NCBI GenBank assembly: GCA_963761335.1
Contig: CAVXGR010000012.1
Location: 480,001 to 544,000, forward strand
Direction: 5' to 3'
Source of the DNA: an uncultured delta proteobacterium
GTDB lineage: Bacteria > Desulfobacterota > Binatia > HRBIN30 > BPIQ01
DNA: 64,000 bases
The translations under genes and the position numbers were made by a program. Shown here one piece after another: positions 8,810-60,650 of this stretch. Below the pieces are notes generated by a model. That model was not told the origin of the DNA. It ran no database searches and was given only the letters and a program-made list of their open reading frames with translations. How positions within the stretch are numbered: position 1 is the stretch's first letter; every line of letters begins with the position of its first letter.

Positions 8810-11800
8810 CTACCACGTATCGACGCAGGGCCGCTTTTTTCCTCGCCGCGACTGCGGCGGCGGCAGGGATCGCAACAGAGAGACTACCCATTGCCGCGAG
8901 TCGGCCGGGTCGATGACGTCGTCGATCTCGAAGTGGCTGGCGCTGTTGAGCGCCTTGCCGTGCTCGTAGGCGCGCTCCACCATGTGCTCGAAGAGCTGGC
9001 GGCGCTGTAGCGGATCCTCCACCGCCTCGAGCTCCTTGCGGAAGCCGAGCTTCACGGCGCCCTCGAGACCCATGCCCCCGAACTCACCGGTGGGCCAGGA
9101 GACGGTGAACAGCGGCGCCTTGTGACTGCCGCCGCCCATCGCCTGCGCTCCGAGCCCGTACGACTTGCGCAGCACGATGGTGAAGAAGGGCACGCTCAGG
9201 TTGGCGCCGTTGACGAACATGCGGCAGCAGTGGCGCACCAGTGCCGTCCTCTCCGCCTCCGGGCCGACCATGATCCCGGGGGTGTCGCAGAGGAAGAGGA
9301 TGGGAATGTCGAAGGCGTCGCAGAGCTGCATGAAGCGGCTGGCCTTGTCGGCGGCGGCGGCATCGATGGCGCCGGAGAGGTGCTTCGGATTGTTGGCGAT
9401 CACGCCGAGCGGCCGGCCCTCGAGGCGGATGAAAGCGGTCACCATCCCCAGACCGAAGTGACGGCGCAGCTCCAGCATCGAGCCGCTGTCCGCGAGCGTC
9501 TCGATCACCGAGCCTATCTCGTACACACGCAGCCGCTTCTCCGGAATGATGCCGCGCAGCCGCCGCTGGTCGGCGCACTCCCAGAAGGCGATCGGCCCCT
9601 GGAAGTAGGACAGGTACTGCTTGGCGACACGCACCGCCGCGACCTCGTCGGCGACGGCGATGTCGACCACGCCGTTCGGCACCTGCACGTCCATCGGGCC
9701 GACGTCCTCCGGCCGGAAGACGCCGAGCCCGCCGCCCTCGATCATCGCCGGACCGCCCATGCCGATATTGGAGTTCTCGGTGGCGATCACCACGTCGCAG
9801 CAGCCGAGCAACGCCGCGTTGCCGGCAAAGCAGCGGCCCGAGTTGATTCCCACCAGCGGCACCAGACCGCTCAGCCGTCCGAAGAGATGAAAGGCCATGC
9901 AGTCGAGGCCGGCCACGCCGGGCGCATCGGTGTCGCCGGGACGCCCGCCGCCGCCCTCGGTGAAGAAGATCACCGGAGCGCGCAGCCGCTCGGCGAGCTC
10001 GAACATGCGGTCTTTCTTGCGGTGGTTCTGAAACCCCTGCGTCCCGGCGAGAACCGTGTAGTCGTACGACATCACCACGCAGCGGGCACCGGGCTCGTCG
10101 AAGAGATCGCCATTGACGCTGCCGACGCCGGCGACCAGCCCATCGGCCGGGGTGCGCTGGATCAGATCCTCGACGGAGCGCCGCTGCCGCTGCGCCGCGA
10201 TCGCCAGGCTGCCGTACTCGACGAAGCTGCCCGGGTCGCAGAGATCGGCGACGTTTTCCCGCGCCGTGCGCTGCCCCGTCCTGCGGCGGCGGGCCACCGC
10301 CTCGGGGCGCTCGGCGTCGCCGGTGAGCGCATGGCGACGGCGCACCTCTTCGAGATCGGCGCGGGCGGCGTCGAGATCGAGGGGCGCCGCTGTCGATACG
10401 TCCTCCTCCGGTGCTTCGCCGAGCTGAATGACCACCAGCACCTGCCCCTCCGGCACCGTATCACCCTGCGCCACTACCAGATGGCGCACCACGCCGCTCG
10501 CCGGTGCGTGCACGACGTGCTCCATCTTCATGGCGTTCATCACCAGCAGCGCCTGGCCCTGGCGGACCGTCTCGCCCTCGGCGATGTCGATGCTGACGAT
10601 CGTCCCCTGCATGGACGAGTGCACCGCCACTGCGTCCTCGAGGCCCGCCAGATCCAGCCCCGGAGCGACCTGCGGCCGCGCCTCGGGCGGGGCGGACGAC
10701 GGCCCCCTCCCCTCACCTTTCCCATAGGCGAGCACCGCCAGCGGATCGGTCGCATCGACAGTCGCGCCGGTGCGCGCGGCGGCCGGGACCTCGGCGACCG
10801 CCGCCGCCAGCTCGGCGGCGTGCTCCTCGACGAAGGCCGTGTGAATGCGATTGGCCGTGAAGTCCGGCTGCTCCAGCAGGCGCGTCAGAAACGGCGCATT
10901 GGTCGCCACGCCGTCCACCCGCAGCTCGGCGAGCGCCCGTCGCGCTCGAGCCACGGCATCCGCAAAGCTCGGGGAGCTCGAGTGCGCCACCAGCTTGATG
11001 AGCAGCGCATCGAAGTGGGGGTTGGTCTGGTAGCCGGGATGAGCAGCGGTATCGACGCGCACCCCCGGACCGCTGGGCAGCCGCAGTGCGCCGATCCTCC
11101 CGCTGGCGGGCCGCGGCGCGCCGTCGGCGCCGAAGGTCTCGGCGTTGATTCGCAGCTGAATCGCGAAGCCGCGCGGCGCCGGCATGCGTGCCGGCTCGAG
11201 GCCGACGGCAGCCAGTGAAGCGCCGGAGGCGAGCTCCAGCTGAACGCGCACCAGGTCGACGCCGGTCACCTCCTCGGTGACGGTGTGCTCGACCTGCAGC
11301 CGGGGGTTCGCCTCGATGAAGGCGTACGCCGGCATCGCCGCTCCGCCTTGCCCCCACGGGCCGTGCGTGTCGATCGCCTCGGCGTCGACGAGAAACTCGA
11401 ATGTTCCGACATTGCGATAGCCGATCTCCTCCGCCATGCGCACCGCGTGGGCCGTGAGCCGCGCCCGCAGCTCGGGAGACAGGCTCGGGCAGGGCGCGAT
11501 CTCCACGAGCTTCTGATGGCGCCGCTGTAGGCTGCACTCGCGTTCGCCGAGGTGGACGACGGCGCCGGAACCGTCGCCGACGATCTGCACCTCGACGTGC
11601 CGCGCCCGCGGCATGAGCTGCTCGACGTAGAGGTCGCCGTTGCCGAATGCCTGCATCGCCTCGGAGCGACAGCGGGCGTAGGCATCGGCGATCTCGCCGG
11701 CTCGATGCACGACGCGCATGCCCCGTCCGCCGCCGCCGGCGACAGCCTTGATGGCAACGGCGGCGTCCTCGTCGAGCGAGGACAGAAACTCGATGGCCTC

Positions 11801-45952: not shown

Positions 45953-47806
45953 TCAGCTGCGACTCGGATAGCGCCGGCGCATTTCCTCGAGCATCCACTC
46001 GCGCGCCGCGGCGTTGCCGGCGACCAGGGCCCGCAAGCGCTCGCGCGAGATGGCGTAGGTGATCATGTGCGTCATGGCGGTGACCGTGGCGGAGCGCACC
46101 GTATCCAGCAGCACGCCGCGCTCGCCGACGACGTCGTGCTCGCCGACCGACGCCACGCCCTTGCGCCCGATGGTAACCACGGCCTGGCCCTCCTCGATGA
46201 TGTAGCACTCGGGAGACTCGCCACCCTCCGTGCACAGGAGATCGCCGGGCTCGAAGCTCATCGGATACGCGGTCGCGGCGAGATGCTCGAGCTCCTCGGC
46301 GCTGCAAGGCGCGAACAGGCTGTTGCTCTGCAGCAGCCCGACCGTGGCCGCCAGGCGCGCGCCGGTGCGAACCGGGACGGAATCCTGCCGGGCCGGGTCG
46401 GTCTCGATGCGTTGCCGCAGCTCGGCGCGCCAGCGCAAGTCGGCACCGGTGTCACCGGCGCGCGGCCGCAGCCCGCGCTCGGCGTGCTCACCGGTTGACG
46501 CTGGGACAGGTGACTCCACCGCCGGCGCCGCCGCGACCGGCTCGGCACTCGCACGTGGACTCGATGACGTTCGGCAGGCGATGTTGAGGGCGGCGAGGCC
46601 GCGCAGCGTCAGACGGTCCTGAAAGCGCGGCTCTTCGCCGGCAAGCTCGATGTGATCGAAGCGCTGCAGCAGCGTGCGAAAGGTGATCTCGATCTCCGTC
46701 CGCGCCAGGGCCGCGCCGAGGCAGAAGTGCACGCCGCCCCCGAAGGTCAGCGGCTGGATGTCCGTGCGCGTCACGTCGAGCCGGTCGGGGTCGGAGAAGC
46801 GCGCCGGATCCCGATTTCCGGCGCCCAGCATGGCGAAGACCTGCTCGCCGGCGGGGATCGTCACCCCGCCGACCTCGACGCTGGCCTCGGTGACCCGGTT
46901 CGCCAGCTGCGCGGTGCCGTCGTAGCGCAGGAACTCATCCGGGAGGTTGGCGAACAGCGAGGCGTCGCGCCGCAGCAGCTCGAGCTGTTCCGGCTGGCGC
47001 AGCAACGCCAGCAAGCCGTTGCCGAACAGGTTGGTGGTGGTCTCGAACCCCGCCGCAAATAGCAGTGAGGCGAGGGTCACCAGCTCGTCGTCCGACAGGC
47101 GATCACCGCCGACCTCCGCCGTCGCCAGGGCGCTCAGCAGATCGCCCCCTGGCTGGCGTCGTTTCTCGGGGATCAGCTTCAGGAAGTAGGCGCGGATGCC
47201 GAGCTGTGCGGTGTCGGCCGCCACCATCTGCTCGTCCGTCGGCTGCATCTCGAAGATGGCCACCAGATCGCGCACCATGCCGCGGAACTGGGGCCGATCC
47301 GCCTCGGGGACGCCGAGCATTTCGCCGATGATCGTCACCGGAAGCGGAAAGCCGACGGCCTCGAGCACATTGCCGCCGCCGGCGTCGGCCACCGGATCGA
47401 GCAGCCGGTCGACGACGCGCTCGATGGTCGGCTTGAGGTTCTCGATCATGCGCGGCGTGAACGACTTGGTGACCAGCTTGCGCAGACGCGTATGCTCCGG
47501 CCCGGTGGTGTTGAGCATGGAGTGCTCGCCGGCCGTCAGCGACGGATGCTTTCGCCAGCCGGGCCCGAAGCGCTGCTCGATCTGCGGCGCGTAGTCCTTG
47601 CCGAGACGCGGATCGCGCATCGCCGCCCAGCAATCGTCGTAACGGCTGAGCAGCCACATCCCCATCTGGGTGCGATGCACCGGCGCTGTCTGGCGGAGCT
47701 GGTGGTAGAGCGGGTACGGATTGGCGCGCCCTTCGGCCGTTAGGAACAGCTTGTTGAACACCGCTTCTGCATCGCTCGGCATGGATTCGTGTGCCTCGCT
47801 GGTCAT
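45953..47806 (-). CDS. Cytochrome P450 fused to C-terminal cyclic-nucleotide-binding domain
   Basis: HTRLRKL, AAGFETT, EFLR, FGGGVHFCLG; C-terminal FEPGDLLCTEG..YIIEEG..VGERGVL..RSATV. Confidence 0.9.
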   Translation of the reverse strand: MTSEAHESMPSDAEAVFNKLFLTAEGRANPYPLYHQLRQTAPVHRTQMGMWLLSRYDDCWAAMRDPRLGKDYAPQIEQRFGPGWRKHPSLTAGEHSMLNTTGPEHTRLRKLVTKSFTPRMIENLKPTIERVVDRLLDPVADAGGGNVLEAVGFPLPVTIIGEMLGVPEADRPQFRGMVRDLVAIFEMQPTDEQMVAADTAQLGIRAYFLKLIPEKRRQPGGDLLSALATAEVGGDRLSDDELVTLASLLFAAGFETTTNLFGNGLLALLRQPEQLELLRRDASLFANLPDEFLRYDGTAQLANRVTEASVEVGGVTIPAGEQVFAMLGAGNRDPARFSDPDRLDVTRTDIQPLTFGGGVHFCLGAALARTEIEITFRTLLQRFDHIELAGEEPRFQDRLTLRGLAALNIACRTSSSPRASAEPVAAAPAVESPVPASTGEHAERGLRPRAGDTGADLRWRAELRQRIETDPARQDSVPVRTGARLAATVGLLQSNSLFAPCSAEELEHLAATAYPMSFEPGDLLCTEGGESPECYIIEEGQAVVTIGRKGVASVGEHDVVGERGVLLDTVRSATVTAMTHMITYAISRERLRALVAGNAAAREWMLEEMRRRYPSRS

Positions 47807-47926
47807 GTCGATCCCCCTATAACCGCGCACCTCGCCTACCTGGATCAGGGCCGCATGCCGCGCGGTGTCCCATGCCCCCCGGGTTCCATCCGGCGAACAT
47901 AGAACAGGCGGGAGAGCGAAAGCCAA

Positions 47927-50694
47927 TCACGCAGACGAGGCAGAGGCCCGCAGCGAGCGGCGCCGCACGCCAAACGCGGCGACCGCGACCAGCAGAGCCG
48001 CCAGGGCAATCAGCCCCCAGCGCGATGCCGCCGGGGCGCTCGCCGACACCGGCAACGCCGGGCCACCGGGATCGACGATCATGCCGTCGCCGGCGGGCGT
48101 ATCGTCGCCGAGTTGGCCGTTGGTCAGCTTGAAGGTCGCCGTCGCCACCGTCGAACCCGTCGCCGGCGGGATCTGCGCCGTGCCAAAGGTCGCAGCGGGC
48201 AACGCGTAGAATTGGGGCGTGTCGAAGCCCGGCGGGATTGGTCCGAACTTCCGATACGCCGTCAGCGGCAGGAAGAACGGCTCGTGGAAGATCAGGGTCA
48301 CGTCGACGCTGGTGGCGCAATCGAGCTGGAAACCCACCATGCCGTACGGGTAGTCGTACTTCGAATCGGTGCCCAACGACGCCTCGCTCGCGGCGTGGAC
48401 CTCTTGCAGCCCACTGCAACCGCCGTTGTCCGCAGGGACCTCGACGGTGATGTACCCCTGCCCGGTCGCGGATGTCAGCGACGCGACGTTGCCCTGCTGG
48501 CTGTCCATGGTGCCGTCGCCGTTGCCGTCGCCGCCGTTCGGCCCGACGTCCTCCACCGCGTCCGGCACGCCGTCCTGGTCGGAGTCCATGGGGATCGGCG
48601 TCACCGTCGGCGTCTCGGTCGGCGTCTCGGTCGGCGTTGCCGTCGGCGTCTCCGTCGGCGTCTGCGTCGGCGTCGCCGTCGGGGTGCTGGTCGATGTCAT
48701 CGTCGGGGTGCTGGTCGGCGTCGATCGTCGGCGTCTGGGTCGGCGTGTGCGTCGGCGTACTGGTCGGCGTCGTCGTCGGCGTGTCGGTCGGTGTTGACGT
48801 CGGCGTCATCGTCGGCGTCTCGGTCGGTGTGTACGTCGGCGTCAGCGTCGGGGTGGCGGTCGGCGTCTCGGTGGGGGTCTCGGTCGGCGTCTCCGTCGGC
48901 GTCTCCGTCGGCGGCGGCAGAGGCACATTGGTTCCCAGGATCGTTCCCACGCCGCCCACCGCCTCGCAGTGGGTGGTTGCGGCGACGCAGCTCACGCCGA
49001 GGAGGCCGTTCGCCGACGGGCTGCTGTCGGCGCTCCAGCTCGAGCCGTTCCAGGACACGATCGCGCCGCCGTCGCTCACCGCCTTGCACCGCGAGGTGGA
49101 AGCGCAGCTCACGCCGTCCAGGGTGCCGGTGGTGTTGCTCGTGTCGCCGCTCCAGCTCGAGCCGTCCCAAGAGCGAATCACGCCACCATTGCCCACCGCC
49201 TTGCACAGCGTCGCTGACGGACAGCTCACGTCGTCGAGCGCGGTCGCGATGCCGCTGGTGTCGCCACTCCAGACACTGCCGTCCCACGAGCGAATCACAC
49301 CGACATTGCCCACCGCCTTGCACAGCGTCGCCGACGGACAGCTGACGCCGAAGAGCTGGGCCGTCGTATTGCTGGTGTCGGCGCTCCAGCTGGTGCCGTT
49401 CCAGGTGAGGATCGTACCGCTGTCGCCCACCGCCTTGCACAGCGTCGTCGAGAAGCAGGCGATGCCGTTGAGGTTCGCCGTCGTGCCGCTGGTGTCGGCG
49501 CTCCAGGTGGCGCCGTCCCACGAGAGAATCGCACCGCTGAAGCCAACTGCCTTGCACAAGGTGGTCGACGGACAGGCGACCCGCTGCAGAGTGACGTTGG
49601 GGGCGGTATCGAGGCTCCACACCGAGCCGTTCCAGGAGGCGACCGTGCCGAAGCCGCCCACGGCCTTGCACAGGCTGCTCGACGGACAGCTCACACCCTG
49701 GAGCCCAATCTCCGAAGTGAGGTTGGTCGGGGCTTCGAGGCTCCACGTGGTCGGGCTCCAGGAGAGGATCCTGCCATGGGCGCCCACGGCTTGGCACAGG
49801 GAGCCGGAAGGACACGATACGCCGCTGAGGCCGTCCGCCGTCCCCGACGACTCGGAGCTCCACGCCGAGCCGTTCCAGGAGCCGGCGATGCCGCTGTCGC
49901 CCACCGCCTGCACTGCGAGCTGGAGGAGCAGCTGACGCTGCGAAGGTTGCCGAACGAGCCGCTGTCCGCGGTCCAATTCGTGCCGTCCCACGAGACAATC
50001 GCGCCGGACAGCCCCACAGCCTTGCATGCCGTGGTCGAGGCGCAGCTCACGCCGAAGAGCTGGTTGGTCATCGACGGAAGCGTATCGGCGCTCCAGCTCG
50101 AGCCGTCCCACGACAGAGCCAGGCCGCTGGTGACGAAGATGTCGTGTCCCACCGCCTTGCACAGCCCCGGTCGAAGGGCAAGAGACGCCGCTGAGGGTGT
50201 TCATCGTGCCGCTCGTCTCGCCGCTCCAGCTGGTGCCGTTCCAGGAGAGAATCGTGCCGGCATCGCCCACCGCCTTGCACAGCATCCCGTCGAAGGGCAG
50301 GAAACGCCGTTGAGGGTGTTGCGTGTCGCTGTTGGTATCGGTGCTCCAGCTCGTGCCGTCCCAGGAGACGATCGTGCCACCGCTGCCCACCGCCTTGCAC
50401 AGCGTGGTCGAGGCAGCACGACACGCCGAGAAGCGAGCTGGTCGTCGGGCTGACGTCGGCGCTCCAGCTCGAGCCGTTCCACGAGTAGATCGTGCCCGCA
50501 TCGCCGACCGCCTTGCACAGCGTCGCCGATGGACAGCTGACGCCGTGGAAGGTGTTCCCTTGCGGCAGCGGATTCTGCCAGACCCAGACGTCAGAGAGGA
50601 TCGCGAGGGCTCTGGGTACGGCGAGCACGCCGTTCACGAGCCCGATTACCAGGAGGACAAGGCCGATGGTGCGGAGACAAGGCGCCGAGCGCAT
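47927..50694 (-). CDS. Large surface protein: Cys/Trp repeats, P/T linker, anchor domain, CTERM-type tail (several frameshifts)
   Basis: Signal peptide; ~41-aa repeats GVSCPSxTLCKAVGxxGTIxSWxGxSWSxDTS; (TPTE)n; DSDQDGVPD; FKLTNGQLGDD..DGMIVDPGGP; SRWGLIALAALL..RRR. Confidence 0.8.
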
Positions 50695-50994
50695 GCGATT
50701 CCACCTCACGTTTCAAGCCACAGGCGGCCGGAGCCGCAACCTTCATTCGGGCGGGCCGCCTCGGCCTACCACCAGGGTGCGCCTCGAGACCTGCCTCAGG
50801 ACCGTCGTGGGCCTCGTGCCCGTTGGTGACCGCGGGGAGAACGACTGCCAGTGCCAGAAGCGTGCGAACCAATGTGCGACGGGAAGGCGACGATTTCTCT
50901 CTCAGGGACACCGGGTCTTTCAGATTTGCCGCATACCGTAAAAGCCGAATCGGGTGCCCATGTCAACTGGGAGAAGGTCCATCGGGTCGGGGTG

Positions 50995-52436
50995 CTAATT
51001 GATTATCCGGTAGACAATGGTGTAGTCGAATTTCGCAACGCGGCGGTACCGATCACTGTTGTCCGCGATAGGGATCAGCGCGTCATAAGGGGGGTACGTC
51101 GGCAGGACGATCCAATCGTTCGCGGCTCTCTTCACCAGAACGGCGAAATGCCCTTTCATTCTCGTCGAATTGCTCCACGACCTCGTAAGCACGCACGCCC
51201 TTCAGGTTGCCGTAGAAGATCAACGAGCGCGTATTGGGGGTGGCGACACGCCCCTCCGGGATTGTCGCCACGACACGGCCCCACTCCTGCGTATAGATCG
51301 CATCACGCCAGTCGAGACAGCGGCCCATCGCCGGATAGACACCGTACGCCTCGAAGTTCGGCACCAATAGACCAATGAGCCCCACCGCCGCGATAGCCGC
51401 CCGCCAAGCATTGCGTTGAACCTGAAAATGACTGACCACGCTTTCGTACAACTTCACGAGCCCGGCGACGCCGAGAACGATCAAGATCGGCAGAAAGGGC
51501 ACGAGGTATCGCTGGAAAGGGATCAAAACAGAACGTGGAGAGCAGAAACAACACACACAGCAGGAGGGTCGGCTGAAGTGCCTTTTGCCGGCGCTGGACG
51601 AACAGAAAGCAGATCCCTCCTCCCAGCAGTCCAAGCGAAAGCTGTCGCAGCATGTTGAGCCAATGAAACTCCCACCACCGCAGCCCGCTGACTCGGCTGG
51701 CGTGAAAGGCCAAGCCTTGCGCCGCTATCACAATCCACGGGGAATAGGCCGCGACGTACAGCGCCACTGTGCCGGCGACCTTTCTCCAATCGCCGTCATA
51801 CCGACGATAGTAGAAGAGCAAGAGTGAGGGCGCGAGATAGAAACCGAAATAATGGGTATAGATCGCGCCGAGAAAGCCACTGGCGATGCATCGTTCGTTG
51901 CCGGACATCAGGCCGTAGACGCAGAGAGTCACAAAGAACGTCAGCATGGCGTACATGGTCGCGGCCTGGGCATATTGCTGATGCAACACATTGAACGTGA
52001 GCAGCGCCGTTGCCCCGAGCGCGGCCCAGTGGGACAGCAGACGCCGGCCAAGAAAATATGTCAAAACGATCGTTGCCCCCGCAAACAACACGGAGGGAAG
52101 CCGCATCGAGACCTCCGCGTAGCCCACCATCCGCCCCCAAGCGGCGAGAAGAAGATAGTGCGCCGGTGGGTGCCGAAAGAAAATGGGATCCGGATAGAAG
52201 TCGCTGTGAAAAGGGTGCTGCGCAAGGTTGACGTATACCGCTTCATCATAAAAGAAGGGCGGCCCGAGGTGCCGGGCGCGAACGGCGACGCCGATGAGAA
52301 CGAGTGCCACGAGCCCGAGAAGTTCTCGGCCTCGGAGAGATTTCACGAGCGGCTGCGTTTCTTCCCCAAGCACGGCGCCGCTATCCCGGCGGCCGATCTT
52401 CGCGTACTTGGTTAGCAGGCGAATTGCGAGGAGCAC
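50995..52436 (-). CDS. ArnT/PMT-like (GT-C) membrane glycosyltransferase, frameshifted near 51530 and 51155
   Basis: FYDEAVY, HPPAHYLLL, MRLPSVLF, YTHYFG, QRYLVPFLP distributed over three frames. Confidence 0.78.
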
Positions 52437-52769
52437 AAGCCGAAGCTCGGCCTACAGCCGCGGCGAGCCGCTCGCAGATTCGTATACCGCAGAACGACGG
52501 CGCGCTCCTTTCTTGGTGTCCGCCGGCGATCGACGTCCCCTCTATCCATCCGCAGGAATGGAAATCGCCGGGGAAACTCATTCCCGACATCGATACGAAG
52601 ACGCGCCGCCGCGGCGGCGGACTCGGGTTGGACAGCTCGCGGCCCGGCATTTGCTTACGCTTCCGGCGTCCGCTTGGACGCCAAGGTGGTGGTTGGCGCG
52701 CTGCGCGGCGATGCGACCCGTCAGACGGGTCGCAAGCCGAGCAGCGCGCCAACGAGAGGGAGTGGAACG

Positions 52770-55700
52770 ATGCCGCAAGCACAGGTCCGCTGCGCAGATC
52801 TCGCCGACGACGACACCGCGGTCGGGCTATCGGTGCTGAACATCCAGCGCACCTGCGTCCACGACGGTCCGGGTATCCGCAGCACGGTCTTCTTTCGCGG
52901 CTGCAACATGCGCTGCAGGTGGTGCCACAACCCGGAAGCGCAGCGGTTCGTTCGCCGCGACGACCGCGCCAGCCGCTGCTCGGTTGCGGAGGTCGTCCGG
53001 GCGGTGCGACGAGACCGGGAGTACTATCGCCACACGCACGGCGGCGTGACCCTGAGCGGAGGGGAGCCGCTGCTCCAGGACCAGGCGAGCCTGGTGAAAT
53101 TGCTCGCGGCGCTGAAAGAGGAAGGGATCGAAGTCGTTATCGAAACTGCGGGCGACGTTCCCTGGCGGGCCTTCCAGGCGTCATTGCCGTTCGTCGATCT
53201 ATTTCTGTTCGATCTCAAGGCGGTCGGCGACGATGCCCTGCATCTCCAGCTGACGGGACGGCCGCGACGGCGGGTCGCGGAAAACATCGCGCGTTTGGTT
53301 GGTGCCGGCGCCAAGGTTCGCTTCCGCATGTGCGTGGTCGCCAGCCTGAACGATTCGCCGGCGAATCTCGAAGCGGTGGCGGCTTTGTTGCACTCGCTCC
53401 GCTGTCCGCGCATCGAGCTGCTGCGCTACTACGACATGCACGAGCAGAAGGCCGCGCACTTCCACCTCGCCCAGGAACCGCTGCACATCACCGCCGAGGA
53501 GAGCGCCGCGGCGCTCGAACGAACGGCCCAGACGCTGACATCGTTGGGAATCGCGGTCGAGCACACCGGTGCGCCGGCCATGCGCCCAACGCCCGCATTC
53601 ACCCAGCGCGTCCACGAGCTGCAGAGGGCCATCCGCGACAGCGGCTATGCCGTCTGCCTCGAATCGGCGCGGCTCAAGACGGCATTCCACAAGACGCACG
53701 GCTTCCACGGCCCGCTCGCGGTGCAGCGCGCGAATTTGCTGCGCCACCTGCTGAACGAGAAGACCGTGGCGGTCTATCCGCACGAGCTGTTGGTCGGCAA
53801 CTTCACCGCAAAGCGGGTCGGCGGCAATGTCTGGCCGGAGTATTTCGGCACCGCCATGGCGGTGAACCTGTGGCGCATCGACCGCCAGAAGCCGGTGGCG
53901 TTCAAATGCTCGCTGGCGGACAAGCTGGCGTTCTACTTCGGCATCCTGCCCTTCTGGATCAGGCACGGGCTCGTCGCCCATGCTTTTCCGTCGCTGCGGC
54001 AGCTCGCGTCCTTCATGGCGCGCACGATCGAGCAACGCGTCGCCTTCAACAACAACATGGCGGCCATCGCTCACTTCATCGTCAATACCGAACGCCTACT
54101 GAAGCTTGGAACCAGCGGGATTGCCGAGGAGGTGAAGGCGCAGCAGCGTGAGAAGCGCGGTGCCGATGACGGCTTCTACGACGGCGTGCTCATCGCTCTC
54201 GCGGCCGTGGAGGCCTTCGCGGAGCGCTACGCCAAGCTCCTGGGCCAGATCCGCCGCCGCGAAGCCGATCCGCAGCGGCGAGCGGAGCTCGAGGCGATGC
54301 GGGAGGTCTGTGGCCGTGTGCCGAAACATCCAGCGCGCAGCTTCCATGAAGCACTGCAGAGCATCTTGTTCATGCACGTGGCGCTGTGCACCGAGTCCTT
54401 CGAGAACGCCATCTCACTCGGTCGGCTCGATCGCGTCCTGCATCCATACTACGCGGCCGACGTTGCCGCCGGCCGTCTCGACTACGACGCAGCCAAGGAG
54501 TTGCTGGCCTGCTTCATCCTGAAGCTGGACGAGATCGTGCTTCTCAACGACGGCGACACCGCCTTCCAGCTCGGCAAGCTCTTCGAGAGCCTGTCGCCGG
54601 TCGAGACGGTCACCATCGGCGGCGTCGATCCGGCGGGCAGGGATTCCACCAACGACGTCACCTACATGATCCTGGACATCTGCGAGCTGCGACCGATCGG
54701 GGTCAACATGGCGGCGCGCATTCACCGCCAGAGCCCGGACGAGTACGTGCGCCGGATCGCCGAGGTCTACCTGAACGGCTCGCCGATGCCGGCACTCTTC
54801 AATGACGGGGTCTACATCCCGGCGCTGCGCAAGCGCTACCCCACCCGGCTCGAGGAGGCGCGCAACTACGGAATCGTCGGCTGCGTCGAGCCGGTCGCCT
54901 CGGAGGATCACTTCGGCAACACCGACGCCGCCAACATCAACGTCGTCATTCCCTTTCTCCAGGCCCTGCAGGGCGACGAGCGACCCCTTTGGGCATACGG
55001 CGCCTTCGGCGAACTCGACCAGAAGGCCCGGCGGCTGCTCGGCTCGGCGATGTGGCGCCGAGGCGGCGCAGCGGCAAACCAGAATGGGTCGCGCCGACGC
55101 CCGCCGGCAACCATCGACGCCCTGATGAAGCGCTTCGGGGCGCGTCTCGACGAAGTCGTCGCCGCCGTCTTGGCCGACCAGCAGCGCATCGAGACGGCGC
55201 TGGCGCGCCATCTCACCACGCCGCTGGCATCCTCGCTCTTTCCCGGATGCGTCGCCTCGGGAAAGGATGCCTACGAAGGCGGCGCGACGTTCAACAGCAG
55301 CGGCATCCAAGCCGTCGGCGTCACCGACGTCGCCGATTCGCTCGTTGCCATCGACGAGGTCGTCTACCGCAGGAATCTCTACGCCATCGAAGACGTGCTG
55401 CAGGCCATCGATGCCAACTTCGAGGGCGAACGCCATGGGGACATTCGACAGGCGCTGCTCGCCGCACCCAAGTTCGGCGATGACACCGCGGTCGAGGCGC
55501 ACCAGTGGATGAATCGAGTCATGGAGCTATACGTGAAGGCGCTGAGCCGGGTCGCGCATCCATCCCGCAACGGCACGTATGTAGCCGGCTACTACGGGTT
55601 GAACGTGAACCGGGTGTACGGCGCCAGGACCCCCGCTCTGCCGTCGGGCCGGCGCCGCGGCGAGCCGCTGGCCAACAGTATCTGCCCGCATTTCGGCATG

Positions 55701-56066
55701 CAGATGATGGACCTGACCTCGGCGCTGAACGCCATTGCACGGGTCGACTTCGCGAGCTTCGCCCCCAACGGCACCACGGTGACGTCGACCATTGATGGCG
55801 CGCTTTTCCCCGGCAACAGCGGCAGCCGCAACCTCGCGGGCGTGATTCGCGGCTTCTTCGCGCAGGGGGGGATGCAGCTCCAGCCGAACCTGGTGAGCCG
55901 CGAGATTCTCCTCGATGCCTACAACCACCCGGGAAAGTACAAGGATCTCGTGGTCCGGATCGCCGGCTACTGCGGCTACTTCGACAATCTCTCGGATGAG
56001 CTGAAACGCGAGATCATCGAGCGCACCTACCACACCGCAAAGCTCGGCTCGACGGCCGGCCTCTGA
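52770..56066 (+). CDS. Fusion of glycyl-radical activating enzyme (radical SAM) and glycyl radical enzyme
   Basis: HDGPGIRSTVFFRGCNMRCRWCHNPE, GGVTLSGGEP; then ELLVG, SLGRLD, GCVEP, DLVVRIAGY in one uninterrupted frame. Confidence 0.92.
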   Translation: MPQAQVRCADLADDDTAVGLSVLNIQRTCVHDGPGIRSTVFFRGCNMRCRWCHNPEAQRFVRRDDRASRCSVAEVVRAVRRDREYYRHTHGGVTLSGGEPLLQDQASLVKLLAALKEEGIEVVIETAGDVPWRAFQASLPFVDLFLFDLKAVGDDALHLQLTGRPRRRVAENIARLVGAGAKVRFRMCVVASLNDSPANLEAVAALLHSLRCPRIELLRYYDMHEQKAAHFHLAQEPLHITAEESAAALERTAQTLTSLGIAVEHTGAPAMRPTPAFTQRVHELQRAIRDSGYAVCLESARLKTAFHKTHGFHGPLAVQRANLLRHLLNEKTVAVYPHELLVGNFTAKRVGGNVWPEYFGTAMAVNLWRIDRQKPVAFKCSLADKLAFYFGILPFWIRHGLVAHAFPSLRQLASFMARTIEQRVAFNNNMAAIAHFIVNTERLLKLGTSGIAEEVKAQQREKRGADDGFYDGVLIALAAVEAFAERYAKLLGQIRRREADPQRRAELEAMREVCGRVPKHPARSFHEALQSILFMHVALCTESFENAISLGRLDRVLHPYYAADVAAGRLDYDAAKELLACFILKLDEIVLLNDGDTAFQLGKLFESLSPVETVTIGGVDPAGRDSTNDVTYMILDICELRPIGVNMAARIHRQSPDEYVRRIAEVYLNGSPMPALFNDGVYIPALRKRYPTRLEEARNYGIVGCVEPVASEDHFGNTDAANINVVIPFLQALQGDERPLWAYGAFGELDQKARRLLGSAMWRRGGAAANQNGSRRRPPATIDALMKRFGARLDEVVAAVLADQQRIETALARHLTTPLASSLFPGCVASGKDAYEGGATFNSSGIQAVGVTDVADSLVAIDEVVYRRNLYAIEDVLQAIDANFEGERHGDIRQALLAAPKFGDDTAVEAHQWMNRVMELYVKALSRVAHPSRNGTYVAGYYGLNVNRVYGARTPALPSGRRRGEPLANSICPHFGMQMMDLTSALNAIARVDFASFAPNGTTVTSTIDGALFPGNSGSRNLAGVIRGFFAQGGMQLQPNLVSREILLDAYNHPGKYKDLVVRIAGYCGYFDNLSDELKREIIERTYHTAKLGSTAGL

Positions 56067-56086
56067 TTCTCATCGCCCGCGGTGGA

Positions 56087-56594
56087 GTGGAGGCCCACGG
56101 CTCCGAGGTGTTGGCGCGCGCCGCCGCCTCCGGCTCGCGCATCGCCGAACGGCGGCTCTCCTCTCCCGATGCGCGCGGCTTGCTGGAAGGCCTGCGCCAC
56201 GCCCGCGACGCGGACGTGGTGAGCCTGCAATCACCGCTCTCGGCCGAGTCCATCCGCCTGCTCTTCCGGGTGTCGGATGCCGTGCTCGCCAACAGCGGTC
56301 ACGAGCCCTTCGGCCTCGTCGGTCCCGAGGCGATGGCGGCAGGAGGTCCTCGCCTGCACGGGGAGCACGGGAGAGGACTACGCCGTCGCCGGTTGGAACG
56401 CCTTGGTGCTGCAGAGCAACGATCCGCGCGAGTTCGTCGCCTACTACCACAGGTTGAAGACCGACGCGGGCGAAGAGTCGGCCCTGCGCCGCCGCGGGCG
56501 TCGCACGGCGGCGCGCTACGCCTGGTCGCAGGTGCTGCAGCGCAACATCCTGCCGGCATTGCACTTCCCCCGGCCGAAGCAGGTCGGCGCGTAG
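56087..56594 (+). pseudogene. C-terminal remnant of a GT4-like glycosyltransferase
   Basis: SDAVLANSGHEPFGLVGPEAMAAG, frameshift, then ACTGSTGEDYA...YAWSQVL. Confidence 0.65.
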
Positions 56595-56621
56595 TCGCGC
56601 TAGCTGAACCGCAGGGCGCCC

Positions 56622-56918
56622 TCAGCTCTGTGGCAGCTTCTGCCCGCTTCGCCCCCCCACATCTCCCGGTGCCCGAAAATAGCCTCTCGGCCGGCCTTCG
56701 CGGTCCCAGTAGCACCCCTGCACGTCGATGTATCCGCGATAGATGCCGTGCTCATCGAAGAAGGCGCCGCTGTCGCTCACCGAGCCGCCAAAGGAGCCGT
56801 CCTGGCTGTAGTAGTGGCCGACCTCGTCGATGTACCCGAGACAGGACCCGAAACGGGTAAAGTGATAGCGCCTGGCGCGACTACCGCGCACCGGACTTGC
56901 GGTCTGGCCTCCGCTCAC
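56622..56918 (-). CDS. Small Gly/aromatic beta-repeat hypothetical protein
   Basis: Repeated GYIDxxGxYxxxxG units. Confidence 0.5.
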   Translation of the reverse strand: MSGGQTASPVRGSRARRYHFTRFGSCLGYIDEVGHYYSQDGSFGGSVSDSGAFFDEHGIYRGYIDVQGCYWDREGRPRGYFRAPGDVGGRSGQKLPQS

Positions 56919-57293
56919 GTCACTCGCCTTCCATGTCGAGACATCGCGTCTCTCGAGCGTCTGAAAGTCCTTTTGCGTCTACAGCAATTTAAGGCGAGTG
57001 GATAGACCGCAGAATTACGCGAGTAGAACTACTCGGTAGCCGCCAGGCTGCATGCTTTTCGCCGGCTGTGTAGGCAGACAGCGTTTCCGGCGCAGGGCGA
57101 ACGATCCCCTCCCGACTCTGAGAACGGGCCACCCGACGGCGGGCAGGAACGCATTGGCGGCAAGCCGGCGGCAAATTTGCAGGAGGTCCGGCCCCGGCGC
57201 CGACCGGGTTCCCGAGCCCGAGATTGACCCATGCCTGCCCGCCATCCCCACAACGACCACCAATCCCTCGGCCACAGGCGCAACGGTAGAGCG

Positions 57294-57948
57294 GTGCCGC
57301 TGAAGCTGGTCACCTCCGCACCGCAACGAGTCACGTCGCAATCCGACCTCATCCCGTCCGTGTGTCTGGCCGTCTTCACAGCTCTGTGGGTCGGCCTCGC
57401 GATCGAGCCCCGCTACCCAGAGGACTGGCTGCTGGAAAATCTCCTCACCTTCGCCTGCGTACCGGCCGCCGTCTTGACGTATCGGCGCTTTCGCTTCACC
57501 GATCAGGCCTACGTCCAGGCCGCGCTCTTCCTGATCCTGCATATTGTCGGCAGCCACTACACATACTCGCACGTGCCGCTCGGCGACTGGGCGCTGGATG
57601 TCTTTGGCTTCTCCCGCAATCACTACGACCGCCTGGTGCCACTTCTCCTTCGGCGTATTGATGCTGCGGCCGATGCGTGAGCTCGTCATCCGCCGGCCGC
57701 GCGCGCTCGGGCGCACTGCGCTGTTCTTCCTGAGCTTTGCCACGATCGCCTGCGCCAGCCTCGGCTACGAGATGCTCGAGTGGTTGGTGGCGGCGGTGGT
57801 CGATCCATCCGCCGGAACCGCCTACCTCGGCACCCAGGGGGACGTCTGGGACGCACAGAAGGACTCGGCCTGCGCCTCCGCTGGCGCGCTCATTGCCACG
57901 GCCATCGACGGCTGGCAGCTACGCGCCGAGACCCGGACTGCAGAATGA
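57294..57948 (+). CDS. DUF2238 (YjdF-like) membrane protein, +1 frameshift near 57639
   Basis: DWLLEN, GSHYTYSHVP, RNHYDRLV(H)FSFG, YEMLEW, YLGTQGDVWDAQKD. Confidence 0.8.
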
Positions 57949-58258
57949 GTCGTTCCGCTTTGACTCAACCACTCGGCCCGAGGCCCGACTCGGCCGCGGA
58001 ACCAGTCGGAGGCAGCAACGGCGATCGGTGCCGGCGCCGCCCGCAGGGGGCAAATTGACCGGGGCGCGCAAGACGGATACTCGTCCCTCAGCATGCAACT
58101 GAAGGCTCCCATGCATGGGAATGAATCTCGCGCCGAGCCGTGAAAAACTGCCAGTTCATTCGAGCCTGAAACCCGGTCCACATCTTGCCGCAGAAAAACG
58201 AGGACGCGACGGGCAAAGGACCAGCGGCCGTTTAGCGCCGTCAGACAGGAGAAGGGAT

Positions 58259-58447
58259 ATGATTCGCTTGGACCTCACCGAGAACGAAGGCGCCACACTG
58301 GTCAAAGTCCTGGATTACTATGTATCCGAGCTGCGCATGGAAGTGACGGACACCGATCTGAAGGACCTGCGCGACCAGTTGAAGGCCGAAGAAGGCGTTC
58401 TGAAGAAGATGCTGGCGACGCTCAAGGAACGGCTCGCGCAGTCCTGA
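58259..58447 (+). CDS. Small helical hypothetical protein
   Basis: MIRLDLTENEGATLVKVLDYYVSELRMEV...; purine-rich RBS upstream. Confidence 0.6.
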   Translation: MIRLDLTENEGATLVKVLDYYVSELRMEVTDTDLKDLRDQLKAEEGVLKKMLATLKERLAQS

Positions 58448-58488
58448 GGCGCGGGTGATCCCGCCGGCTCGGCTTACGCGAGGACACT

Positions 58489-60650
58489 GTGGGCCTCGTT
58501 TGGGTAATTCCGTTCTCCGCCCTGCTCTCCCTGGGCTTCGTCGCATACCTGGCCTGGGATGTCCTGCGGTCCGACAGCGGTACCCCGGAGATGCGGGCGG
58601 TGAGCGACATGGTCTACGAAGGAGCGGTCGCCTTCATCAAGAGGCAGTACACGACGATCGGTGCCATGGCGCTGGTCACGGCTGTCCTCATCGCGGTGCT
58701 GGTCGCCCATTTCGAGAGCTTCTCGGAGACGGCTATCACCGGCTGGCCGCTCGGGATTCGCACCGGCATCGCCTTCTTGGTCGGGGCTGCGGTCAGTACC
58801 CTCAGCGGCATCATCGGCATGTACGTCGCGGTCAAATCGAACGTGCGTACCGCGAGCGCCGCGGGCGGCGGCGTGGGGCCGGCGCTGCGCATGGCCCTCC
58901 GCGGCGGCGCCGTGAGCGGCTTTCTGGTCGTGACGCTGTCGCTCCTCGGCGTGTACGGAATGTTTCTCCTCTACGGTGGGCGCACCGCGCCGCAGCACGC
59001 TCCCTTCCTCATCGTCGGCATGGGCTTCGGCGCCAGCTTCGTGGCGCTGTTCGCTCAGCTGGGCGGCGGCATCTACACCAAGGCGGCAGACGTCGGCGCC
59101 GACCTCGTCGGCAAGGTCGAAGCGGGCATTCCCGAGGACGATCCGCGCAATGCCGGTGTGATCGCTGACCTGGTCGGCGACAACGTGGGCGACTGCGCCG
59201 TCGCGGAGCCGACCTCTTCGAGTCGACAGTCGCCGAGAACATCGGCGCCATGATTCTGGGCGTCACCCTGTTCACCGCCACGCACCGCGTCGAGTGGATC
59301 CTCTTTCCGCTCGTCGTGCGGGCCTGCGGGCTCATCGTCTCCATCGCCGGCGTCTTTGCCACGACCGCCTTCCCCGGGCTGAAATACCGGCCGGGAGAGG
59401 AGCCGACGCGGGCGCTCTATCGGGGATTTGCCGTGTCGGCCGGGCTTGCGGCGCTCTCGCTCTGCGCCGTGGAGGAATCGATGCTCGGCGTCAGGTGGTT
59501 CGCAGCTGCGGGGCTGATCGGCCTGCTCACCAGCGTGGTCTTCGTGCTGATCACCATGTACTACACGGAGGCGGGCTTCTCTCCGGTCCAGTCGATCGTG
59601 CACGCCAGCTTGCGCGGAGCCGGCCCCACCATCATCACTGGGCTCGCGGTGGGCTTCGAGAACGCCGCGGCCCCGGTGCTGACGATCGCCCTCGCCCTGA
59701 TCGGCTCCTACTACTGCGGCACTCAAGCGGCACCCGGTCTGCACGTCTCCGCCTACCAGGGAGGAGTGTACGGAACCGCAGTAGCGACCATGGGCATGCT
59801 CATGCCGGCGGCTTTCATTCTGGCGATGGACACCTTTGGTCCGATCGTCGACAACGCCGGCGGCATCGTGGAGATGGCCGGCGCCTCAGAGGAGATCCGG
59901 CGCGCTACGGACGCCTTGGACGCCGCCGGCAACACCACCAAGGCGCTCACCAAGGGTTACGCCATCAGCTCGGCCGCGCTGGCGGCATTTCTGCTCTTCA
60001 GCGCTTACCTCGACAAGGTCGAGCTCATCCGGCGTGCGCTCGGGCGACCCGCTGCCGAGATCGCCGCCTCGCACACGGTCGACATCGGGAAGATTACCGT
60101 CTTCATCGGCGCGATGATCGGCGTCATGCTGATCTTCCTGTTCAGCTCGCTGGCGTTGCGCGCCGTCAGCAAGACCGCGGAGCGGATCATCAAGGAGGTC
60201 CGGCGCCAGTTCCGGGAGATTCCCGGCCTGCTGGCGGGGACGGGGCGGCCGGATTACGCGCGCGCCGTCGACATCACCACGCGCGGCGCATTGCGCGCCA
60301 TGATCGCCCCGGGATTGCTGGCACTGGGCGTGCCGATCATCGCCGGCGTCGTGCTCGGGGCCGAGGCCGAGGCCGCGCTGCTGATGGTCGGGACGATCAG
60401 CGGAATCGTCCTCGCCTGCGTGATGAACAACAGTGGCGGTGCGTGGGACAACGCCAAGAAGTACATCGAGGTGCACGGCGTGCGGGACGACCAGGGGCAT
60501 ATGCAGGGCAAAGGCAGCGACGCCCACAAGGCGTCCGTGGTCGGCGACACCGTCGGCGCTCCGTTCAAGGATACCGCCGGCCCATCCCTGCACGTCCTGA
60601 TCAAGCTGTTGTCCACGATCACCCTGGTGCTCGCCGCCCTGTTCATCTGA
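58489..60650 (+). CDS. hppA: Membrane-bound pyrophosphatase, predicted K+-independent H+-pump; one-base deletion near 59200
   Basis: GGGIYTKAADVGADLVGKVE, EDDPRN, GDNVGD, GNTTKA, GGAWDNAKK. Confidence 0.92.

Follow-up and report, generated by a model that had tools for sequence, protein, structure and literature searches.

A fused gene at 52770-56066 of the DNA analysed here (64,000 nucleotides (nt) of contig CAVXGR010000012.1 from an uncultured delta proteobacterium; hereafter the window) encodes a single chain in which a radical S-adenosylmethionine (radical-SAM) activase without a ferredoxin insert stands N-terminal to a glycyl radical enzyme (GRE). GREs are oxygen-sensitive and usually receive their radical from a separately encoded activase. 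Sequence comparison shows that this single-chain fusion is genuine and conserved, with all catalytic motifs kept. The full reading, in which the activase domain would moreover install the radical on G1066 of the enzyme domain and the enzyme would perform an elimination or isomerisation of the CXE (Cys-x-Glu) type on a hydroxylated substrate, is likely.

The reading frame is open on the forward strand from 52674 (TTG) or 52770 (ATG) to the stop at 56066. On sequence grounds ATG 52770 is taken as the gene start, because a Shine-Dalgarno-like AGAGGGAG sits 7 nt upstream, because the 19-residue lead before 'LSVLNIQR' then matches the family consensus, and because one soil contig has a 1-nt insertion at 52713, which would disrupt a frame begun at TTG 52674 and could be tolerated only in non-coding DNA. 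Read from this ATG, the gene is one open reading frame (ORF) of 1098 amino acids (aa) plus stop. Pfam places Fer4_12 at residues 32-126 and Radical_SAM at residues 40-196, followed by PFL-like (PF02901; residues 279-951, E 1.7e-131) and Gly_radical (PF01228; residues 971-1071, E 2.7e-16), and reports no ferredoxin (Fer4) family at E<=0.01. The activase half passes TIGR02494, the model for GRE activating enzymes (203.1 bits, cut-off 174.35), in two stretches (profile 1-39 and 102-287) that skip the part of the profile with the ferredoxin insert; it misses the PflA equivalog TIGR02493 (143.3 bits, cut-off 231.75). A prior reading of the DNA letters alone (the sequence-only reading) had described a single activase-GRE ORF with CX3CX2C, GCVEP and RIAGY motifs and no ferredoxin insert, and the translation, Pfam and TIGR02494 all bear this out.

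Both the PFL-like barrel and the C-terminal glycine radical domain are present according to Pfam and Foldseek, which places the protein in the GRE superfamily. It is far from pyruvate formate-lyase (PFL) itself: TIGR01255 gives 114 bits against a cut-off of 994, and the active site reads G-C-V-E with no Cys-Cys pair. The GRE fingerprint RVxG[FWY]x6-8[FL]x4Qx2[IV]x2R, as quoted in the accessible text of a review (PMC13450708), agrees with RIAGYCGYFDNLSDELKREIIER at all but two sites, where the fusion protein has Ile for Val and Lys1079 for Gln. All aligned members of the fusion family have K1079, and among 74 non-family rows the same site holds 8 K and 64 Q.

Homologues were taken as the 120 best matches from a collection of 5.8 billion proteins. 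The fusion protein and 109 of them form an alignment of 110 rows; the other 11 were dropped as partial, domain-lacking or over-long. All 110 rows share the activase residues D32, G33, P34, G35, R37, C45, C49, C52 and the two GGE glycines G97 and G98, and the Gly-loop residues R1063, A1065 and G1066. H435, E542, E545, N546, A547, C705, V706, E707 and D719 are among the many further GRE residues that are invariant in this alignment. Mean column identity is 0.8-0.9 in the catalytic loops and 0.44-0.58 in the linker. Judged from the alignment, both halves of the protein are under constraint. The AlphaFold2 model built with the family alignment has, for the whole chain, a mean predicted local distance difference test (pLDDT) score of 89.9 and a predicted template modelling (pTM) score of 0.91; only residues 1-15, 764-772 and 1089-1098 are modelled with low confidence. 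For a two-domain chain, such a pTM suggests that the activase has a defined position on the enzyme in the predicted structure. In Foldseek, the GRE domain reaches target-normalised template modelling (TM) scores of 0.93 to 1r8w, 0.93 to 2f3o and 0.91 to 9rco, at 28-29% identity.

The fused architecture recurs widely. Radical-SAM and PFL-like domains lie on one chain in 117 of the 120 best matches, at 52-70% identity and 90-99% query coverage; for the remaining three (917-1029 aa) a radical-SAM domain is not recorded. One of the 120, a 633-aa fragment, is 97% identical to the fusion protein. A peptide pattern was also run over one genome per species for 185,579 species, giving 155 matches, of which 135 encode a relative and 80 were kept as loci. 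The gene is a single ORF of at least 1000 aa in 68 of these 80; eight are cut by contig ends, and in four the frame changes, at residue 421/422 in L004, near 155-172 in L032, near 576 in L081 and inside the linker in L052. Three of the four frame-changed loci come from assemblies whose names suggest long reads. In L052, from a Spirochaetota metagenome-assembled genome (MAG), the frame shifts at 10735-10773, exactly in the activase-enzyme linker (residues 264-277); the cause is an indel from sequencing or else a natural split, which would be rare. A search for shorter homologues of the fusion protein found no stand-alone natural activase above about 45% identity. Among six close short matches that were aligned, P0132, P0134 and P0135 extend into the first GRE helix, the similarity of P0133 and P0138 fades near the linker, and P0139 ends inside the linker on a 1.6-kb contig. 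By their alignments these look like broken or truncated fused genes and not stand-alone activases, though a rare gene that is truly split may exist.

The host genome (6.26 Mb, 99% complete) holds the fusion gene as its sole PFL-like gene. No class III ribonucleotide reductase (RNR) was found in it. A second activase-like gene, of the ferredoxin type, lies on contig 5 of the same genome (G000; 206729-207175 on the reverse strand; L082 1396-2046). It ends after the GGEP region, covers profile positions 2-153 of 293 and has no adjoining GRE, and from its sequence it appears to be what is left of a GRE system that was lost. The activase domain of the fusion is therefore left with no other evident client, and the case for self-activation, put forward in the sequence-only reading, is strengthened, since the host's only PFL-like enzyme is the fused one and the only other activase-like gene is truncated.

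Two explanations that would undo this picture have some evidence behind them. A 1-nt indel in the assembly might have joined what are separate genes for an activase and, downstream, an enzyme; 1-nt frame breaks do occur in two nearby genes of the same assembly (those for H+-pyrophosphatase and DUF2238), L052 changes frame exactly in the linker, and a relative from a sister lineage has two genes that overlap by ATGA. Against such an artefact stand the many independent assemblies and proteins with the single-ORF architecture counted above, a linker modelled at pLDDT 75-86, and the reads. In Logan contigs from four soil DNA runs of one study, at low depth and with parts of the gene uncovered, X3 record 14 (53419-53631) and X2 record 9 (53365-53586) cross or enter the linker at 53556-53603 with substitutions only and no gaps. 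The sequence-only reading had held that a junction indel, or close homologues that are all split, would speak against it; the two independent short-read contigs are gap-free at the linker and the homologues are overwhelmingly unsplit. The artefact is thus largely refuted, and we consider it exceedingly improbable. It is also conceivable that the activase domain is mainly a permanently bound regulatory or structural module, or acts on other chains only, while another enzyme installs the radical. According to section 2.4 of PMC13450708, in its accessible text, the radical is both installed and lost faster when the PFL activating enzyme (PFL-AE) and PFL are present at 1:1, so that an obligate 1:1 ratio might seem disadvantageous, and the same text describes the N-terminal helices of GREs as forming the dimer interface and the Gly domain as peripheral. 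All radical-SAM catalytic motifs are nevertheless invariant in the 110 aligned sequences, and the host genome has no other intact GRE activase, which makes this second explanation very unlikely. The preferred reading remains an activase that works on the enzyme domain of a fused chain, its own or a partner's.

Alignment to B12-independent glycerol dehydratase (1r8w) equates C705 with Cys433, E707 with Glu435, H435 with His164 and D719 with Asp447, and the class motif C705-V-E707 is present in all 110 sequences. As described in the accessible text of PMC13450708, the CXE motif is kept in all C-O eliminases and in the isomerases, its Glu hydrogen-bonds the substrate hydroxyl, and in glycerol dehydratase Glu435 deprotonates the C1-OH while His164 protonates the leaving C2-OH. 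Given these roles and the conservation of C705, E707 and H435, the protein has what a radical elimination on a hydroxylated substrate requires. In the mechanism that we infer, the minimal activase domain, with one [4Fe-4S] cluster, would reductively cleave S-adenosylmethionine, and the resulting 5'-deoxyadenosyl radical would abstract hydrogen from G1066 of its own chain or of an oligomer partner's chain. The radical would then move from G1066 to C705, which would abstract hydrogen from a hydroxyl-bearing carbon; E707 would handle that hydroxyl, and H435 would help the neighbouring leaving group to depart. A polar hydroxylated substrate outside the known ones would thereby undergo 1,2-elimination or be isomerised with ring opening.

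Several observations weigh against reading the protein as a familiar dehydratase or against parts of this scheme. The positions that we take to be Ser282 and Tyr339 of glycerol dehydratase correspond to A547 and V611 in the fusion protein, and that of Ser642 to L944. N717, N722, Y941, N945 and N947 are invariant or nearly so in the family, where neighbouring clades have S, L, F, T and H; the four asparagines are family-specific and give a pocket unlike that of glycerol dehydratase. The score for TIGR01774 (the B12-independent glycerol dehydratase / PFL2-3 subfamily) is 492.2 bits, short of the cut-off of 678.2, the equivalog models for HypD, CutC, HpsG/HpfG and the YbiW type (PRK09983) are all far under theirs, and neither the fusion protein nor any of nine of its nearest relatives reaches any NCBIfam equivalog or subfamily cut-off for a known GRE. 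No reaction can therefore be transferred by homology. No partner gene is conserved across the family among the 80 loci, the recurring sets being clade-specific. Finally, four haem-copper oxidase subunit-I matches above cut-off in the host genome mean that the enzyme could work only in anoxic phases. Because the pocket differs and no cut-off for a known GRE is reached, the substrate is probably a new one.

The sequence-only reading had called the enzyme 'eliminase-type'. The CXE motif and the conserved His fit that description, though an isomerase reaction is conceivable. The protein might be a GRE isomerase, or a C-N or C-S lyase, acting on a sugar phosphate, an amino alcohol or a sulfonate in the manner of YbiW/PflD, HplG or IslA. 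The CXE motif, shared by eliminases and isomerases in the review cited above, would suit it, and PflD, YbiW, HplG and IseG structures give Foldseek TM scores of 0.85-0.92, nearly level with the dehydratases. GPH-type sugar transporters adjoin the fused gene in 10 of the 80 loci, and xylose-isomerase-like TIM barrels, FGGY kinases and glycoside hydrolases do so in a few more. Yet glycerol and propanediol dehydratases come out best both in sequence and in fold, 5 loci have near the gene an iron alcohol dehydrogenase, which usually accompanies dehydratases that form aldehydes, and no equivalog model is at cut-off. On balance we think such an isomerase or lyase unlikely, and prefer an enzyme of the CXE type that acts, by elimination or isomerisation, on a hydroxylated substrate.

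The origin of the fusion was approached with the GRE domain alone. A HMMER search of representatives at 50% identity found 6773 proteins at E<=1e-3, 1540 of them at E<=1e-30. The ferredoxin-less family collapses there to a few representatives, P0243 and the N-terminally truncated P0242. The next representatives, P0245 (1095 aa, 42% identity), P0285 and P0252, are activase-GRE fusions that retain the ferredoxin insert; P0246 is a truncated fused protein, and no unfused GRE exceeds 39% identity. In GRE-domain trees (FastTree with 89 rows, IQ-TREE quick trees with 28 rows; rows under 740 aa left out) the ferredoxin-less family forms a single long-stemmed clade (support 100). A wider clade, with Shimodaira-Hasegawa-like approximate likelihood ratio test (SH-aLRT) support of 97-98, unites it with all ferredoxin-bearing fusions and one unfused lineage (P0248, G030). 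The complete members of the wider clade, P0245, P0252 and P0248, also have Lys for Gln in the Gly-domain fingerprint; P0285 ends before this region.

In G030, which belongs to the host's own order, a 310-aa ferredoxin-type activase gene ends ACATGA and overlaps the ATG of an 807-aa GRE gene. The activase comes first, as in the fusions, so that losing a single stop would join the pair into one gene. No activase lies within 1.4 kb upstream in a second unfused relative, G034:C50, and ATGA coupling is thus seen in one of the two unfused relatives examined. In an approximately unbiased (AU) test, forcing all 12 fused rows together costs 13.3 log-likelihood units (p-AU 0.014; the group was defined after the tree had been seen). 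A single fused clade is thus rejected, which implies at least two events, either multiple fusions or one fusion and a later fission. Loss of the ferredoxin insert probably came after the fusion and on the stem of the ferredoxin-less family. The ferredoxin-bearing fusion P0252 (1136 aa) has Ser for the catalytic Cys and PLSGN for the usual RVxGY at the Gly loop, and by its sequence may be catalytically dead or diverged. Among more distant relatives, P0263 and P0268 are GREs with an N-terminal SCP2 sterol-carrier domain.

The fused ortholog is found in 2 of 40 genomes of the same family or order as the host, and in neither of the two from the same family. Among named genomes the best matches are to MAGs of Polyangia, Myxococcales and 'delta proteobacterium', and the wider family extends to Spirochaetota, Smithella and Syntrophaceae, Desulfobacterales, Christensenellales and other Clostridia, and one Promethearchaeota MAG. 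This patchy distribution fits transfer or repeated loss.

The features of the fused gene and its surroundings are listed in Table 1. In the window no pathway or microcompartment genes flank the gene, as the sequence-only reading had noted, and no bacterial microcompartment (BMC) shell gene was found in the whole host genome. The break in the H+-pyrophosphatase gene falls in the conserved ...DNVGDCAG RGADLFES... stretch and is either an assembly indel or a pseudogene. DUF362 and GreA genes come next after the DUF2238 and H+-pyrophosphatase genes. Rfam gave no riboswitch or other RNA element at E<=1 over 50500-58600; no sigma-70-like sites were found around the gene, and two terminator-like sites are within chance. 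Further upstream, on the reverse strand, a 657-aa ORF at 45953-47926 joins a cytochrome P450 domain to a C-terminal cyclic-nucleotide-binding domain. A long ORF at 47817-50501, also reverse, repeats a motif some 40 residues long (…LCKAVG…G.I..W(D/N)G..WS…) many times and has a Pro/Thr-rich tract; a forward frame at 48451-49935 overlaps it and likewise has a high G+C content at third codon positions (GC3), so either strand may code.

Table 1. Features of the fused gene and of neighbouring genes in the window.
Feature	Position	Strand	Basis or remark
Shine-Dalgarno-like AGAGGGAG	52755-52762	+	Sequence read; 7 nt 5' of the ATG
Fused activase-GRE coding sequence, 1098 aa + stop	52770-56066	+	ORF, Pfam, NCBIfam, AlphaFold2
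Radical-SAM activase domain, residues 20-262, PFL-AE type without ferredoxin insert	52827-53555	+	Pfam Radical_SAM, Fer4_12; TIGR02494; 3c8f
CX3CX2C radical-SAM cluster motif, C45/C49/C52, CNMRCRWC	52902-52925	+	Translation
Inter-domain linker, residues 263-278 (16 residues), VEHTGAPAMRPTPAFT	53556-53603	+	Between model strand 262-265 and helix 279-290
GRE domain, residues 279-1090, PFL2/glycerol-dehydratase-like barrel	53604-56039	+	Pfam PFL-like, Gly_radical; 1r8w; Foldseek
Cys loop GCVEP, C705 = thiyl-radical Cys, E707 of CXE motif	54879-54893	+	Translation; alignment to glycerol dehydratase
Gly loop RIAGY, G1066 = glycyl radical site	55956-55970	+	Translation
PMT_2 membrane glycosyltransferase	51303-52436 (wider extent 51083-52436)	-	Upstream, divergent; stretch of lower G+C (0.57-0.62)
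Glycosyltransferase family 1 (GT1) fragment, two frames	56087-56594	+	Directly downstream of the fused gene
DUF2238 membrane protein, two frames (profile 2-65, 63-140)	57231-57948	+	Apparent extra C near 57640
H+-translocating pyrophosphatase, two frames (Pfam profile 2-210, 231-645)	58489-60650	+	Base apparently missing near 59195

Neighbouring ORFs of the 80 loci were clustered and Pfam or NCBIfam was run on about 200 of them, with no background set, so that the following are plain counts. A GntR/FCD regulator lies directly upstream on the same strand in 16 loci (Smithella and relatives), and the GPH-type transporters mentioned above are MFS_2 proteins of Clostridia (10 loci). A B12-binding protein occurs in 6 loci and DUF2238 in 6, the latter comprising the window and five Smithella loci. 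Less frequent are the Fe-alcohol dehydrogenase (5 loci), a metallophosphoesterase cluster (5 loci, plus L020, L022 and L027), a TetR regulator (4), GDPD (4, three of them directly downstream), PI-PLC-type proteins (2), PEMT (2), PLD (1) and patatin (1). Several of these recurring neighbours act on phosphodiesters or lipid head groups, which offers a lead towards a lipid head-group or polyol substrate, and the neighbouring alcohol dehydrogenase is a lead in that it fits an aldehyde product. The synteny of the closest relative, L004 (83% identity), with the window is limited to the fused gene. In L051 (14949-18254) the fused gene is directly followed by a distant second GRE (28% identity) and then by that enzyme's own separate activase, in the conventional enzyme-then-activase order.

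In the full-text literature searched, from which subscription-only papers were outside the scope, no description of a natural activase-GRE fusion was found; this includes the accessible parts of PMC3543383, PMC11574389, PMC4034769 and PMC13450708. The last of these is a GRE review of June 2026, and the words 'fusion' and 'fused' are absent from its accessible text. The fused activase-GRE is a real and conserved architecture, apparently unstudied, which current annotations ('radical SAM protein', 'formate C-acetyltransferase') hide. Its greatest value may lie in providing a natural single-chain model of glycyl radical installation and a pointer to a new GRE reaction. As stated in the accessible part of section 2.4 of the same review, structural insight into how the glycyl radical is installed comes solely from PFL-AE with a 7-residue peptide bound, the flipping of the Gly domain out and back is not understood, and whether half-site reactivity lies behind partial radical loading is open. 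An activase and an enzyme tethered by a short linker, with a pTM of 0.91, would be a ready-made object for cryo-electron microscopy or crystallography of the activation complex, and the fusion allows tests of activation in cis and in trans by mixing mutants. The family also shows that an eliminase-type GRE can manage with a ferredoxin-less activase, and its pocket signature hints at a GRE reaction not yet described. More speculatively, the protein could be a radical enzyme complete in itself, with activase and enzyme obligately at 1:1. In bacteria that respire with haem-copper oxidases as well, the present soil host among them, it could re-install its glycyl radical at once under anoxia with no need of a separate activase, and it would catalyse an undescribed GRE reaction on a polar compound, for instance a polyol derived from a lipid head group. 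We hold this full scenario to be doubtful. If it is true, the fixed activase-enzyme interface would offer the first system for visualising a complete activation complex.

Among known systems, the B12-independent glycerol dehydratase of C. butyricum (1r8w) and 1,2-propanediol dehydratase (5i2a, 9rco) are the best sequence matches, at 350 and 323 bits, and the best fold matches, at TM 0.87-0.93. Glycerol dehydratase has the same Cys-x-Glu loop and Gly loop, as well as the His and Asp equated above with H435 and D719. Both dehydratases differ in having separate activases, whereas the activase here is fused, N-terminal and ferredoxin-less; the fusion protein has an insertion of about 26 residues at 736-780 relative to glycerol dehydratase, and its host has no dha or pdu-type operon or microcompartment. 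The PFL2 of Archaeoglobus fulgidus (2f3o; 338 bits, 29% identity), a GRE of unknown function according to the accessible text of PMC13450708, is the second-best sequence match. It is unfused, and its active-site strand reads ENYEQAIS where the fusion protein has ESFENAIS.

On the activase side, the closest solved structure is PflA (3c8f; residues 30-227), which consists of the radical-SAM domain only, as here. In the same accessible text of PMC13450708, the vast majority of GRE activases are said to have a ferredoxin domain, only PFL-AE and the class III RNR activating enzyme being without one. The present domain differs from PflA in falling under the PflA equivalog cut-off and in being covalently joined to a single-Cys CXE enzyme and not serving PFL. 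Nearest in organisation are the ferredoxin-bearing fusions P0245, P0285 and P0252 and the ATGA-coupled pair of G030 (L091), which belong to the same GRE clade and share the activase-first order. These differ in their lower identity (34-42%) and in an activase that keeps the ferredoxin insert, and in G030 and P0248 activase and enzyme are two genes, whereas in the window they form one chain.

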